From contig NW_027191455.1 of assembly GCF_011745625.1 (NCBI RefSeq), positions 62,001 through 126,000 on the forward strand: 64,000 bases of DNA, given 5' to 3'. Shown here piece by piece: positions 31,313 to 36,163 of this stretch (the first letter of the stretch is position 1; the number at the start of each line of letters is the position of its first letter). Both the position numbers and the translations under genes were made by a program. This DNA is from Cladosporium halotolerans. Lineage: Eukaryota. The notes beneath the pieces are model-generated. The model did no database searches. It had not been told where the DNA came from and saw only the letters and a program-made list of their open reading frames with translations.

Positions 31313-32185
31313 ATGAGTAAATTCTTCATCGACAGCACGTCGCAGTCCGCAGACACGACGCCAGCGCACGTAGGCTCGCCTTCTTTCGGCTCAGACGATG
31401 AGGACACCCTCCCATACCCAGCTGAGCTCGCCCGCAACGACTTTCTCTCACCAAACTTTGACGCCCAGGAGTATCTGTCGTCGTTGCGGAATAGACATCA
31501 AACTCTCGAAGATTTGCGCAGCGACCTGCGAGGAAGGAGCCAACTTCTCAATCGTGAACTCTTGGATCTGGTCAATGGCAATTACGAGGAGTTCCTGAGC
31601 TTGGGAGGGGGTTTGAAAGGGGGAGAAGAGAAAGTGGAAGGGGTCACGGTTGGGCTGCTCGGGTTTCAAAGAGAAGTGGAGACAATAAGGAAGGCTGTAC
31701 AAGAGAGGGCAAGGGAGACTGGGGATCTTTTGCAAGAGAAGAAGGGACTGAGGAAAGAAGTCGTACTTGGGAGGGCATTGCTGGAAGTCAATGAGAAGCT
31801 GGAGGAGCTGGAGGAGAGGCTTGGTATCAAGTCGAAAGATGAAGAGGACGATGAAGAGGACGATGAAGACGAAGATGATGATGATGAGGCATCATCAGCT
31901 GCCGGAAACTCTGTCTACGCTGGTACTCTTAGACGTTTAGGAAAGCAATCAGAGCAGTATCTCTCGATTGTGCGGCAGTGTGATAGGATTGGCACCGGCC
32001 ACCCTTTTCTCGTGAGCCTGCAGCCCAGGATCGATGAGGTACGCAAAACGATCATTCTGGATCTTTCGGCTTCATTACGCCAAGCGAAGTCCTTGGACGA
32101 CAAGAGAGCTGTGCTAGGTCTGACTCAAGTCTTCGCGGCCGTGAATGCGGAGAACGATGCTCTGAGAGTTCTGAAGGGTTCCTGA
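31313..32185 (+). CDS. COG2: Conserved oligomeric Golgi complex subunit 2
   Basis: Motif LPYPAELARNDFLSPNFDAQEYLSSLRNRHQTLEDLRSDLR...LLDLVNGNYEEFLSLG. Confidence 0.85.
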   Translation: MSKFFIDSTSQSADTTPAHVGSPSFGSDDEDTLPYPAELARNDFLSPNFDAQEYLSSLRNRHQTLEDLRSDLRGRSQLLNRELLDLVNGNYEEFLSLGGGLKGGEEKVEGVTVGLLGFQREVETIRKAVQERARETGDLLQEKKGLRKEVVLGRALLEVNEKLEELEERLGIKSKDEEDDEEDDEDEDDDDEASSAAGNSVYAGTLRRLGKQSEQYLSIVRQCDRIGTGHPFLVSLQPRIDEVRKTIILDLSASLRQAKSLDDKRAVLGLTQVFAAVNAENDALRVLKGS

Positions 32186-33016
32186 CAGCCAACTCATCCG
32201 TGCGCTAAGAACATTCATCACCTGAGTACACCAGGAAAGAAGTCTTGGACAAGATGGAGCTCGTATGCTACACTGAGCAATGATTCTGCCCAACAAAGCC
32301 GAGTCTAGAACTCGCCACGCTCGGTGTATCTGATGATATATACATAGCCTCCACCAAGACGGGGCGGAAAGTGGACCGCAACACCACCCTTTGCCGTCCT
32401 CGACAATGATTTTGGTCTTGGTCGTAGAGGTCTTACATCTAAGTTACCCAGCCCAGGTCCACGCAGAGCCATTTCCGGCTGCTCGTGGAACGTGCCTATG
32501 CAGCGAGAAGACGACAAATGAATCGTCACTCCCATGCAAACGCGGCATTCGGTCAATGGCCTACGCAAAAGCGGACGTGGACGCCCATGCGAGCGAACGC
32601 CGCAGCAGTACGAAGACTAGGGCACTCGACTTCCGTTGAACCGTTGTGGGGGCGAGTTTCATGGTGGATGTCATGAGGAAAGTATTGAATACGAGGCTTT
32701 GATTGAATGAGTTATGCAGCATTGCTGCTACCTTACCGTTACCCGATCGACGTAATCAACACAACTGACCTGATCGCAAAAGACTACAATTTGCTGTGTA
32801 ATGAAATTCGAATTCTATGTATGGTACATGTGATCTCGCACACGAGGGGGAAGACCTCGTGGCGAGACGCAACCCTCGCTTGTCTGTGAGTTGGCCGCTA
32901 TTGTGCCCGGCTCATTCACCAATACAAATGCCATCCCTATCAGGCTTCATTCGGCCAAGAGGTCCATCTCGCTTGAATCAGACTCAGACTATCGTATCTC
33001 GAACTCCATCACTCGA

Positions 33017-33688
33017 TCACTGGCGTGGAGGTCCCCGAGGTCCCCTTGGTGCCCTTGGTGCCCTTCCACCCCGGCCGGTTTCCCGCCCACCGGGCTTTCC
33101 GCCTTGTCTCGGCGCCTTCAGTGCCAGCTTCTCTTGAAGCATGGTCCTCTGTGCCTTCGCCTCGTCGAAAAGATAAGCGTCGATGCGGATCTTGTGGCCA
33201 AAGTCCTTGATGCCAGCCTTGCTCACGTATACCCTCTCGGCGCTCTTCCTCTTAGCAGCAATACCAGACTTGGAGCTGCGCTCTCCGCCCGTGTTCTCCA
33301 AAACGGCGTACTGTGAGAGAAGCTGGTTTGTAGTCTGCGCAGCGGTTGGGAGTGTCTTGACCGTTGCTTTGTTGTAGCTGTAGGTTGATGTTCGCCATTC
33401 TTGCGCGCCGGGCACGGGGCGGGAGAAGCGTACACCTAGGCGGCGGGTAATGTCGGCGTGTGAAGGTGGCGGAGGGCGCGCATTTGGGTTTGAAGGCCCA
33501 TGGTGAATCTTTGACCTGGTAATGTGTAGTAAAGGTGCACTGGCGGGTTGCTCGGTCTGGGTTGTGGGTGTTGCTGGGTTCTTTTGCAGGGCGGTTCGTG
33601 TAGTCGCGAATGTTCGTTTTGCCGGCAGCGAGGGAGCAGCAGCTCTTGATGCGAAGGTCCGCGCGAACGAGCAGCTAGGACAGGCCAT
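33017..33688 (-). CDS. rps3 (N-half): Nuclear-encoded N-terminal half of mitochondrial ribosomal protein Rps3/uS3m, with targeting presequence (223 aa)
   Basis: QEWRTSTYSYNKATVKTLP and KRKSAERVYVSKAGIKDFGHKIRIDAYLFD resemble the fungal mt-Rps3 N-terminal blocks (approximately KEW.NSIY.YNKN..K.LP and R.S.NKIF.SKAEIKH...K..IT.Y.YN). The N-terminus is R/A/S/T-rich and acid-free, and the start context is caccATGG. Confidence 0.75.
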   Translation of the reverse strand: MACPSCSFARTFASRAAAPSLPAKRTFATTRTALQKNPATPTTQTEQPASAPLLHITRSKIHHGPSNPNARPPPPSHADITRRLGVRFSRPVPGAQEWRTSTYSYNKATVKTLPTAAQTTNQLLSQYAVLENTGGERSSKSGIAAKRKSAERVYVSKAGIKDFGHKIRIDAYLFDEAKAQRTMLQEKLALKAPRQGGKPGGRETGRGGRAPRAPRGPRGPPRQ

Positions 33689-33962
33689 GGTGATGTGTGT
33701 CGCGATTTTGCTGCGCAAGACTGCCGTGGATCTCAAGTCCGCCATGCGATGGAGTCGGGGTTCGGGAGTGAGAATCCGGATTTGGCTATTCGCCGCAAGT
33801 TCAATCAACTCACACCCATCAATGTTAATCAATGGACCCCTAATTGATTGATTAACAGCGCGGCTCACTCCCGCGGCGAACTTCCATCTAGTCTATCGTC
33901 GAGATATCCCACTCCATACGACTGTCACTGGTCGCAATCGCATTCCCGCTACAACATCAGCC
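33689..33962. promoter_or_regulatory. Putative bidirectional promoter between the two rps3 halves
   Basis: 274 bp between divergent ATGs, with a central AT-rich 11-bp inverted repeat at 33823-33857. Confidence 0.6.
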
Positions 33963-34568
33963 ATGCCGCCACCCCCAGTCGGCCGCGCCGCAAAGCGCCT
34001 TGCAGTTGACCTCTTCACCCCAACCGTGCAAAGGCCGCTCCAGTCCCTCCTCGCCAAAACGTACGGCAAGCCGGTCGAGCTCAACTTCGTCGAACTCAAG
34101 CGCCCACATCTGAACTCGGAAGTCCTCGCCTCTCTCGTCACCCAGAAGCTGAAGGATCGTCAAAATACGCCCCGCAGGGTCGTGCGAGAAGTCGTGCGAA
34201 GAGCGCAGCTACCCACATCGCAGTCGGAAGTGCCCTCGCAAGCCGACCATGCTAAAGCTGCCGCAAAGGCGCTCGCTAAGGATCCCTCGACCTCTTCAAT
34301 GGCGCGCGCGAAGGCCCCCATCGGCCACATCATGCACTCTCTGAGATTGAAGCAAGTCACAAGCATCAGCGTGGGCGCCGCCGGTCGTCTCGGCAAGCGT
34401 ATGACTGCCAACAGAGCGCAATCGAAGACGGCGAGGAAGGGTCTCACAAGCAAGGGCCCGGGTTATGTCATCAGGGGTATCGAAAAGAATCACACGGAGA
34501 CCGTTGTCGAGGCAGGCAAGAGGAGAGTCGGTGCGTTCGGTATCAGGGTGTCCGTTGGCCACTCATAA
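33963..34568 (+). CDS. rps3 (C-half): Nuclear-encoded C-terminal half of mitochondrial ribosomal protein Rps3/uS3m (201 aa)
   Basis: YGKPVELNFVELKRPHLNSEVL, AGRLGKRMTANRA and terminal KRRVGAFGIRVSVG resemble the mt-Rps3 C-terminal blocks (approximately YNKKVEFNIVNLK...LNSDI, KGRLTKRY.A.R, SKRRIGAF.VKGW). Confidence 0.8.
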   Translation: MPPPPVGRAAKRLAVDLFTPTVQRPLQSLLAKTYGKPVELNFVELKRPHLNSEVLASLVTQKLKDRQNTPRRVVREVVRRAQLPTSQSEVPSQADHAKAAAKALAKDPSTSSMARAKAPIGHIMHSLRLKQVTSISVGAAGRLGKRMTANRAQSKTARKGLTSKGPGYVIRGIEKNHTETVVEAGKRRVGAFGIRVSVGHS

Positions 34569-35251
34569 AACGTCTTTCAGCATTGGAGTTTGGGGAATTA
34601 TTGGATTTTCGGGTGATGATCAAAGGCACCAGAGAAGCATTCGAGATATGGACATTCCACGGGAGACTGAAGGTCTAGCGTCCGCGAATACGTCTCGATT
34701 CTTCGCATAAAGGCGAACGGATGCGGATGATCCAACCCCGCAGGCGCCTTTCCTTCGCAGAGAAGGGAGTGTATCGATAAACTTGCTGTATTTTAGACTA
34801 CATCAATTACTTCACGTCCCCTTTTCACCTCTATTTCGGCATTTGCTAGGCCAGGTGCTAAATCTACTCTAGGCCGCCGATTCATCTCAAAGCCCTGGGG
34901 CGGGGAAGAGACGGATGGCACGTCCGATGTCGCGAATCAGACGAGAATGCATCTACGAAGAGTCGCGAGCTCTTGCTGATCTAGAACTTTGCACCAATAC
35001 GAACCAAGGCGATCTGCCGGGTCTGGCGTGCACGGCACGCCGGACAGGGCTGAGCAGCGGCCATGCGGGCACCACTGTGTGTTCTCCAAGGTGTAAGCAG
35101 CTCTAGGCTGAGACTTGCAGTCACATGTGCTACACTGATGAAAGGCTTGAGAGACACTTCATGAAACACTTCTGGGCAGTTCGTCCTTCTTATTGCGGAC
35201 CAGCTCCTACCGACTTTCTTCGACTTTACTGCGCACAAGTCAACACCCAAC

Positions 35252-36163
35252 ATGGCCGACGGAAAAGCGGTAATGGACTCCATCGTCAATGATGACTTCA
35301 CGACCAAATGTCCAATGCGTGTGAACAATCGCCGCTGCGGCAACGTACCTACTTGCAAGCGTGTGCATTTCAACGATAAGGGCGCTCCAAAGAAGGCTGT
35401 CGAACTTCAGCGTCAAATCGTCTCCTCTGCCAGGGACAAAGAAAGCCAGGAGTCTTTGGCTGATATTGAATCGAGTGTGAAGCAGTTGTTGGGCTACTGT
35501 CTATGTCAAAAGCACCTCGCAATGATCAAGGAGTCGACGGCGAGCTCTATGAAGTTTTTGAGCGAGGAATGCGGCATCTTCAACAAGCAAGCGAACCAGC
35601 CAACGAAGAGCACCGGCGTTAGGCACCGTCCAAATCTTGAAACCTCCCAATCTACATCGACGAAGGCCGTGTCTACAGCATCTATTGGCTCCTCGAAGGC
35701 GACTTCCTCGACAGCCACCTTAGGACGTACTCCCTTCGCTTCTATCGGCTCGAACGCCACTGACTTCACTTTCCGTCACCATATCCCAATCAAGACCGAA
35801 GATGACTCCGGAACCTCCCAAACCCTTTCTACTGCTGGTTGCCAGTCACTGCTTGATAATCTTTTACAACGAATGGAGACCCTGGAGATCAAGTGCAACT
35901 CTCAAGACGCCGAGAATACGAAGCTTCAATCACGCGTGGACGAGATGGATATCAATATCCGCAAGCGCAAACTCGAAACTCGTGACCTCAAGAAGCGCAT
36001 TGAAACCCTTCAAAGCAACAACGACAAGCTTCTTGATATCATTGAGGAATTGAAGACTGCCAGTGACAATCGTCAGGGCGATGATGAGAAGCTACAGCAG
36101 GATCGTGAAGATCTGGAGGAAGAAAATGCGGCATTGAAGGCTCAACTGCGCGCGCGTCGTTAA
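35252..36163 (+). CDS. Hypothetical protein, Cys/His N-terminal domain + S/T linker + coiled coil (paralog A)
   Basis: 303-aa ORF with good start context (caacATGG) and co-linear similarity to the ORF at 37112-38116. Confidence 0.7.
   Translation: MADGKAVMDSIVNDDFTTKCPMRVNNRRCGNVPTCKRVHFNDKGAPKKAVELQRQIVSSARDKESQESLADIESSVKQLLGYCLCQKHLAMIKESTASSMKFLSEECGIFNKQANQPTKSTGVRHRPNLETSQSTSTKAVSTASIGSSKATSSTATLGRTPFASIGSNATDFTFRHHIPIKTEDDSGTSQTLSTAGCQSLLDNLLQRMETLEIKCNSQDAENTKLQSRVDEMDINIRKRKLETRDLKKRIETLQSNNDKLLDIIEELKTASDNRQGDDEKLQQDREDLEEENAALKAQLRARR

Follow-up and report, generated by a model that had tools for sequence, protein, structure and literature searches.

Two divergent nuclear genes of Cladosporium halotolerans as putative complementary pieces of the mitoribosomal protein uS3m

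In a 64,000-nucleotide stretch of the Cladosporium halotolerans genome (NCBI RefSeq assembly GCF_011745625.1, contig NW_027191455.1, positions 62,001 to 126,000 of the forward strand), referred to here as the window, two divergent nuclear genes were found whose products are, with a probability we put at roughly 0.85, complementary parts of a single mitoribosomal protein, uS3m (Rps3/Var1/S5). This protein is usually encoded by one mitochondrial gene and is the ribosomal protein that most fungi keep in their mitochondrial DNA (mtDNA); why uS3m/Var1 resists transfer is a long-standing question. What was observed for the pair is homology, a head-to-head arrangement that is conserved, constraint on both sequences and cover by contigs from RNA libraries. 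The features concerned, in window positions, are listed below (ORF, open reading frame; UTR, untranslated region).

33017..33688, minus strand: N-half gene of uS3m, 223 aa plus stop (ORF, conserved Met, PDB matches)
33963..34568, plus strand: C-half gene of uS3m, 201 aa plus stop (ORF, Pfam VAR1, PDB matches)
33689..33962, no strand: divergent intergenic region of 274 bp, presumed to hold a bidirectional promoter and both 5' UTRs
33815..33880, no strand: conserved intergenic core, from an alignment of 10 intergenic regions
32893..33016, minus strand: probable 3' UTR of the N-half transcript, from an RNA-library contig (X15 record 1, 32893-33622)
34569..34797, plus strand: probable 3' UTR of the C-half transcript, from RNA-library contigs (X15 record 4, 34341-34751; X17 record 10, 34467-34797)

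The first-pass annotation, made from the letters alone, had described two GC-rich, intronless ORFs lying head to head with starts 274 bp apart, and both the ORFs and the gap were recovered. All of the Rps3-like motifs that it quoted are present in the translations (QEWRTSTYSYNK..KTLP; KRKSAERVYVSKAGIKDFGHKIRIDAYLFD; YGKPVELNFVELKRPHLNSEVL; GRLGKRMTANRA; KRRVGAFGIR), and no joints are visible in the RNA-library contigs covering the two ORFs. Under the standard code the minus-strand ORF spans 33017..33745 (242 aa), its extension upstream of 33688 being unconserved. Met-20 of this ORF ('MACPSCSF', 33688) is invariant in 16/16 aligned N-half sequences, and the annotated N-half protein of Cladosporium fusiforme also starts at MACPSCSF; the coding sequence (CDS) on this strand is most likely 33017-33688, with a product of 223 aa. 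As the N-half start is taken to be this conserved Met, the start-to-start gap is exactly 274 bp. GC makes up 59.5% of the N-half and 60.4% of the C-half, within a surrounding 64 kb of 50-63% GC. Only one Trp codon occurs across the two ORFs; it is TGG, in line with the earlier remark that the locus is no raw nuclear copy of mtDNA (NUMT).

For assignment of the minus-strand product, single-sequence and profile searches were run against the PDB. The N-half is made up of a presequence-like N-terminus, a conserved core (~residues 90-176) and a poorly conserved Gly/Arg-rich tail. Residues 1-45 contain 6 K+R, 0 D+E and 23 S/T/A, a composition that agrees with the presequence proposed at the outset. 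Using phmmer, the single sequence matched Neurospora crassa uS3m (6yw5_CC) over residues 48-139 (E 9.5e-4), and a profile of 27 sequences gave the same chain as its sole match, over residues 16-147 (E 5.8e-8). No Pfam family was matched by the N-half. An exhaustive search with the profile across 1.84 billion representatives returned 275 proteins at E<=1e-3, the strongest of which are 190-340 aa long, have a nuclear-type composition and belong to no Pfam family. From ~E 1e-12 the matches include proteins of 400-800 aa rich in N/K/I/Y/F, aligned over their N-terminal ~30-140 residues. When long proteins of this AT-type were given to Pfam (n=11, 411-774 aa), VAR1 passed C-terminally in 9/11; one of the other two scored 32 for VAR1 against a cut-off of 33, and the last was without VAR1. 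In the 27 sequences, which include Teratosphaeriaceae-like ones, the core residues E97, W98, Y103, N106, P114 and L123 are invariant. Among the N-half matches, one protein of 193 aa (P0073, named at NCBI 'MAG: DUF4394 domain-containing protein, partial [Haliea sp.]') has first ~91 residues that are a fungal N-half, 79% identical to that of the window, and a remainder that is a bacterial DUF4394 protein; this suggests that a metagenome-assembled bacterial genome contains a chimeric contig.

The plus-strand product passes the Pfam VAR1 family (PF05316): it scores 36.2 bits where 33 are required (E 8e-9), and the alignment takes in positions 47-190 of the 195 in the profile. Searched singly, its sequence matched two stretches of N. 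crassa uS3m (6yw5_CC), residues 241-302 and 401-502, as well as bacterial uS3 over ~84-142; a profile of 24 sequences matched the same chain over residues 240-307 and 402-502 (E 1.4e-18), and also bacterial uS3 over residues ~83-142 (E from 1.2e-5). The strand-helix KPVELNFVELKRPHLNSEVLASLVTQKLKDR is common to the C-half and bacterial uS3, and the C-half also bears the GRLGKRMTANR and KRRVGAFG blocks of the C-terminal domain. By sequence comparison, each ORF is homologous to a different module of fungal mitochondrial Rps3, the one N-terminal and the other C-terminal, with no overlap between them and with similarity far beyond chance. The ranges of N. crassa uS3m recovered by the profiles, 16-147 and 240-502, share no residue, as was anticipated if each ORF were only one end of Rps3.

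The reality of the head-to-head arrangement was then examined against the possibility of an assembly artefact, whereby a contiguous nuclear rps3 would have been wrongly inverted in this assembly. The observation in its favor is that Logan contigs of both available DNA runs break inside the N-half gene (at 33458-33487 in X2 and 33565-33568 in X3). Neither run has a break at the junction, however, and the contigs that set out from those breaks (X2, 33458-35100; X3, 33565-35100) extend across the start of the N-half and the intergenic DNA to beyond the end of the C-half. These contigs represent other strains, since they differ from the window at several positions. The breaks adjoin variant sites, that of X2 being accompanied by a 57-letter side contig and a 27-letter loose end; they are probably due to strain heterogeneity in those runs, with the junction unaffected.

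Contigs from JGI metagenomes were scanned with the C-half alignment, giving 23 loci, of which 7 have less than 300 bp upstream and are too short to judge. Where at least 650 bp upstream was available, an opposite-strand N-half lies just upstream in 11/14 loci, and a partial N-half (its beginning) is present in two further loci with shorter flanks (L012 and L019). Because L004 equals L005 and L012 equals L013, the head-to-head cases come to 11 distinct sequences, drawn from several samples. Grouped by best match to named proteins, they are Cladosporium-like (76-82% identity to C. fusiforme), Oleoguttula/Meristemomyces-like (76%, L013) and Friedmanniomyces endolithicus-like (96%, L019), with one more distant locus (L015). 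In C. fusiforme itself the halves are annotated on the adjacent locus tags Q7P37_000453 and Q7P37_000454, and each half has its own conserved start and stop. With bridging contigs, recurrent head-to-head loci and adjacent tags in C. fusiforme, mis-assembly can be excluded for practical purposes; we regard it as vanishingly improbable. The order of the two genes is likewise retained in relatives, in the metagenome sequences as in the consecutive tags of C. fusiforme.

At three loci no N-half was found in the available upstream DNA: L006 (1,167 bp), L007 (3 kb) and the distant L020 (3 kb), L006 and L007 being one sequence. As the C-half stands alone in L007, the two genes have become separated from each other in one lineage or more. 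This Cladosporium-like locus (78% identity to the C. fusiforme C-half) carries an intact C-half of 201 aa, with no N-half within 3 kb upstream; its upstream neighbor is another gene, a 399-aa ORF with a Cys-rich 'CENCRDKFDDFD' motif at its end.

The DNA between the two starts was compared across relatives. The start-to-start gap is 274-292 bp in the window and 9 Cladosporium-like loci, and ~196 bp (L013), ~273 bp (L015) and ~179 bp (L019) in those that are Teratosphaeriaceae-like or more distant. Within the conserved core the following elements were distinguished.

33815-33823: core block CCCATCAAT
33826-33834: inverted-repeat arm TTAATCAAT
33847-33855: inverted-repeat arm ATTGATTAA
33868-33880: core block CTCCCGCGGCGAA

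In most of nine aligned relatives a near-perfect palindrome, CAATCAATATATTGATTG, occupies the inverted-repeat site. Judged from its conservation, this core might be a regulatory element, and the intergenic region as a whole may act as a shared bidirectional promoter.

Expression was followed through assembled contigs from metatranscriptome or RNA-seq libraries, for which ends are approximate and the strand is not given. Contigs from two studies (X15, 32893-33622 and 33954-34751; X17, 33074-33590, 33972-34248 and 34467-34797) span both ORFs and their 3' flanks without joints. None of the X15 or X17 contigs lies over 33623-33953, which includes the 5' end of the N-half CDS (33623-33688), or extends past the 3' flanks. 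This pattern of cover hints faintly at two separate intronless transcripts. For an estimate of selection, pairwise Nei-Gojobori ratios of nonsynonymous to synonymous substitution (dN/dS) were calculated; over 28 pairs of N-halves the median is 0.18, and over 45 pairs of C-halves it is 0.16. Measured against the window the values are 0.16-0.24 and 0.13-0.21, respectively; all are rough, as synonymous distances are near saturation (0.86-1.85). On these ratios, both halves are under purifying selection.

Whether the halves could rebuild one fold was approached by co-folding N-half residues 50-190 with the C-half in three runs, alongside three controls; the supplied alignments were unused. The score was 0.63, compared with 0.00 for the best control, the runs agreeing in at least 74% of contacts with a partner predicted local distance difference test score (pLDDT) of at least 67. 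In a benchmark the mark of 0.63 was reached by 51/78 solved complexes and 2/108 mismatched pairs. The predicted interface places N-half 164-176 (its last strand) beside C-half 36-48 (its first strand), and the contacts of lowest error join N-half 167-174 ('IRIDAYLF') to C-half 37-45 ('PVELNFVEL') in parallel register. Because split halves can pass by way of solved intact structures, this result expresses likeness to one uS3 N-terminal domain and is no proof of binding. The earlier idea that two polypeptides would reconstitute uS3m in the mitoribosome is thus matched by a predicted strand pairing, though the pairing shows likeness rather than binding. AlphaFold models of the single halves are confident only at N-half ~110-190 and C-half ~20-85, with mean pLDDT of 62.6 and 55.4. 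The C-half model over ~20-85 superposes on ribosome chains, including 6yw5_CC, with a root-mean-square deviation of 1.6-2.3 over 57-68 columns at Foldseek E 0.018-0.7, none being at or below 0.001.

From these results a mode of assembly can be proposed. In the N-terminal domain of uS3, the first strands would come from the N-half, which also brings the presequence, and the last strand from the C-half, which would contribute the whole C-terminal domain of the rRNA/mRNA channel as well. Both would be expressed from the short shared intergenic region and probably imported separately, rejoining non-covalently by beta-strand complementation (N-half 164-176 with C-half 36-48) during assembly of the small-subunit head.

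To place the split, named unsplit proteins were sought using P0101, an unsplit nuclear-type match, as the query. A single nuclear-type uS3m of 357-366 aa was found in seven named Mycosphaerellaceae: Zasmidium cellare, Zymoseptoria tritici, Cercospora kikuchii, Septoria linicola, Dothistroma septosporum, Lecanosticta acicola and Pseudocercospora musae. Some of these proteins carry the source labels 'ribosomal protein S3-like', 'putative ribosomal protein VAR1' or 'uS3m'. They are the closest relatives (43-54% identity over the shared parts), being likewise nuclear-type and compact, and they differ in being one polypeptide with a linker of ~25-35 residues where the window's gene is cut. Both window halves map collinearly onto the unsplit proteins, with the break falling in this linker; past it the N-half continues into its unconserved Gly/Arg-rich tail, and the C-half begins 12-15 residues ahead of the conserved 'L-x-P..Q..LQSLL' helix. 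Presequences of Teratosphaeriaceae-like N-halves resemble the unsplit ones, as would be expected from a single transfer. Named proteins consisting of the C-half only (~200 aa) were found in Cladosporium, Cryoendolithus, Peltaster and, among the Teratosphaeriaceae, in Teratosphaeria, Meristemomyces, Recurvomyces, Oleoguttula, Friedmanniomyces and Elasticomyces.

A census with the half profiles covered all 286 fetched proteins, those with N+K+I+Y+F at or above 0.33 (our own threshold) being counted as mitochondrial-type. Among nuclear-type proteins the N module precedes the C module in 29, the C module precedes the N module in 1, 53 have the C module only and 63 the N module only; the corresponding numbers for mitochondrial-type proteins are 96, 0, 0 and 44. 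The sole C-then-N protein among the 146 nuclear-type sequences, P0096 (316 aa), has C-half residues at 4-199 followed by an N-core at 206-312 in one chain. Its start resembles that of stand-alone C-halves, and its N-core is without a presequence. It is present letter for letter in the ESM Atlas, where only generic uS3m clusters are given, which is uninformative on its origin. Either natural circular permutation or an error of gene calling could account for P0096.

The existence of unsplit nuclear uS3m, and the collinearity of both halves with it, make transfer and fission separable steps. Sequence comparison thus favors a nuclear transfer that preceded the fission, with the unsplit nuclear form surviving in a sister family. 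The original inference of endosymbiotic transfer plus fission holds in both its parts and is amended here to two separate events. It was also asked whether both ORFs might be old NUMT-derived nuclear copies with no ribosomal function, the real uS3m still being encoded in mtDNA. Such a view finds support in PMC5626475, where no nuclear rps3 counterpart is reported for any Dothideomycete. The same source and a table in PMC6221350 show the mtDNAs of Zymoseptoria tritici and Zasmidium cellare to lack rps3, yet a nuclear-type uS3m is present in both. As these two species carry such proteins, the search described in PMC5626475 evidently missed nuclear copies. The ORFs, moreover, are conserved across families and have intact frames under purifying selection and a nuclear codon composition, all of which speaks against nonfunctional copies; we hold that explanation to be very improbable.

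How the gene came apart is less clear from the distribution of states. By NCBI taxonomy, Teratosphaeriaceae and Mycosphaerellaceae belong to the Mycosphaerellales and Cladosporiaceae to the Cladosporiales, with Peltaster incertae sedis; split forms are therefore found in two orders, and unsplit forms inside one of the two, the Mycosphaerellales. A quick maximum-likelihood tree of the C module was built from 94 rows, with six mitochondrial proteins as outgroup and fragments under 150 aa omitted. In the free tree the unsplit clade (support 99) groups with Teratosphaeriaceae-like split forms (support 84), and Cladosporium and Peltaster form a clade of their own (support 96). A tree constrained to hold all 58 split rows together, from which fragment P0251 was omitted, was not rejected and scored 9.29 log-likelihood units better (p-AU 0.715). 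The outgroup has a different composition, and long branches lead to several of the ingroup rows; with the unrejected constraint, these features mean that the gene tree favors no order of fission and fusion. The comparisons are compatible either with one fission, the gene tree being discordant with taxonomy or a re-fusion having followed, or with more than one.

In the scenario that we prefer, rps3 would have left the mtDNA in an ancestor of Mycosphaerellales and Cladosporiales, shedding its long variable insert, and this nuclear-whole state would persist as one gene in Mycosphaerellaceae. In lineages leading to Cladosporiaceae and Teratosphaeriaceae, the cut would then have been made in the linker that joins the conserved modules, most simply by way of a single inversion of promoter and N-module. 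Because such an inversion carries the promoter along with the N-module, the promoter would come to lie between both halves; the N-half would face away with its old presequence and acquire a tail by read-through, and a new start for the C-half would arise within the linker.

An origin by inverted duplication of the whole nuclear gene with complementary loss, or by more than one fission, is a real if doubtful alternative to this route. The occurrence of the split in two orders with the unsplit state inside Mycosphaerellales is in its favor, as is the nesting of the unsplit clade (support 99) among split forms in the free tree; moreover, an inversion or duplication that carries the promoter may be the only geometry leaving both halves expressed, so that convergence is plausible. 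Against this alternative, the window has one copy of each half, and no remnant of a missing half was found in flanks or intergenic DNA, the best E of 0.35-0.7 being noise on a tiny database. The better score of the all-split clade and the spacing, which is similar in both families (179-292 bp), also speak against it. A lone inverted-repeat pair (25 nt, 84% complementary) inside the two coding regions was taken as chance. Less probable still is a split ancestral to Cladosporiales and Mycosphaerellales, in which the Mycosphaerellaceae gene would be a re-fusion and P0096 a reverse-order rejoining; we consider this unlikely. If true, it would amount to a natural experiment in cutting, rejoining and permuting an imported core ribosomal protein.

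Returning to the proposal of two complementary working genes, a number of points weigh against it. The C-half, whose residues 1-20 contain 3 K+R and 1 D+E and thus a short basic stretch only, is without a long presequence, so that its import signal is not evident; import and ribosome incorporation of either half are inferred from sequence. A mitochondrial rps3 may be retained in this organism. The success of the co-fold may come from intact uS3/uS3m folds that the program had learned, and the C-half model is poor past residue ~85. For the N-half model, Foldseek against the PDB gave no fold match (best E 0.82) and nothing stood out among the 48,161 chains searched with VIA-align (best Z 3.4); this blank is uninformative and is no evidence of a new fold. 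Contigs from RNA libraries cannot prove transcription, strand or transcript ends. Adjacency of the halves is not obligatory, as L006/L007 and L020 demonstrate. Given the distribution of split and unsplit states in NCBI taxonomy, two fissions, or one fission and a re-fusion, are needed. Finally, neither inverted repeats flanking the segment nor remnants were found that would mark the putative inversion.

It was also considered that only the C-half might be a working uS3m, the N-half being a decaying remnant or recruited elsewhere. The N-half has no Pfam family and a model without a fold match, is less conserved than the C-half, ends in a low-complexity Gly/Arg tail and is not beside the C-half in L007 and L020; in addition, Holozoa have lost part of uS3m altogether, according to PMC7326499. 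Against this stand a dN/dS of ~0.18 at synonymous distances above 1, core residues invariant in 27 sequences, a presequence that is kept and RNA-library contigs covering the N-half. The predicted interface is specific to the C-half, and the same module is found in every unsplit nuclear and mitochondrial form. This possibility is accordingly judged improbable, and the reading of the two genes as complementary pieces of uS3m is retained.

Comparison was made with known forms of the protein. N. crassa uS3m (VAR1, 6yw5 chain CC) has both modules in the same order, with hallmark blocks in common. Relative to mitochondrion-encoded Rps3/Var1/S5 of fungi, the window's version is nuclear, has GC-rich codons and two genes and is without long AT-rich variable inserts, and its N-half has gained a presequence and a Gly/Arg tail. 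Split forms have been reported elsewhere. In Tetrahymena thermophila (mS92 + mS31 + uS3m; PMC7326499) the N-terminal sheet is likewise built from separate polypeptides, and in the solved structure the C-terminal piece gives the one strand that completes this sheet of uS3, an arrangement that is only predicted here. The ciliate protein differs in comprising three pieces from two genomes, whereas that of the window would have two, both nuclear and adjacent, and of independent origin. Polytomella magna is similar in that uS3m is made of two nuclear-encoded fragments (PMC9576764), and differs in being a green alga whose mitoribosomal rRNA and proteins are generally fragmented. For nuclear or split rps3/uS3m in Dothideomycetes, no description was found in the literature searched, in which subscription journals were not covered. 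The first-pass annotation had considered the arrangement undescribed; this stands, in the literature searched, for the fungal case and the head-to-head geometry, and does not extend to split uS3m as such, which the above sources record in Tetrahymena and Polytomella.

The pair is, as far as our searches reach, the first split uS3m found in a fungus, with both pieces nuclear and a conserved divergent arrangement, and it falls within a natural series of states. This series is graded, from mitochondrion-encoded (free-standing rps3, Pleosporales) through nuclear whole (Mycosphaerellaceae) to a nuclear divergent split pair (Cladosporiaceae, Teratosphaeriaceae), possibly with a permuted form in one sequence. 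The published statement that Dothideomycetes have no nuclear rps3 stands corrected, and a family of "hypothetical proteins" without Pfam assignment, the N-halves, is identified as half of a ribosomal protein. The cut would divide the uS3 N-terminal domain along the structural seam that is also used in ciliates, which may mark a general weak or tolerance point. The system also offers testable material on import constraints, on gene fission by inversion and on co-regulation through a shared promoter.

A separate observation concerns the mtDNA of Bipolaris sorokiniana (PMC7225605), in which genes named 'rps3' (399 bp) and 'rps5' (555 bp) are adjacent on the same strand between cox3 and nad1. S5 is the name given to N. 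crassa uS3m in its PDB deposit, and the two Bipolaris genes could be a mitochondrial rps3 in two ORFs or a frameshift or annotation artefact.

The pair in the window is flanked by two ORFs, both of which look like normal nuclear genes.

31313-32185 (left flank): ORF for a COG2 N-terminal domain protein (E 1.5e-22)
35252-36163 (right flank): ORF for a coiled-coil, weakly bZIP-like protein (sub-threshold bZIP matches)

The left-flank COG2 ORF was found again in one of the metagenome loci (L011), and the right-flank bZIP-like ORF in another (L002).

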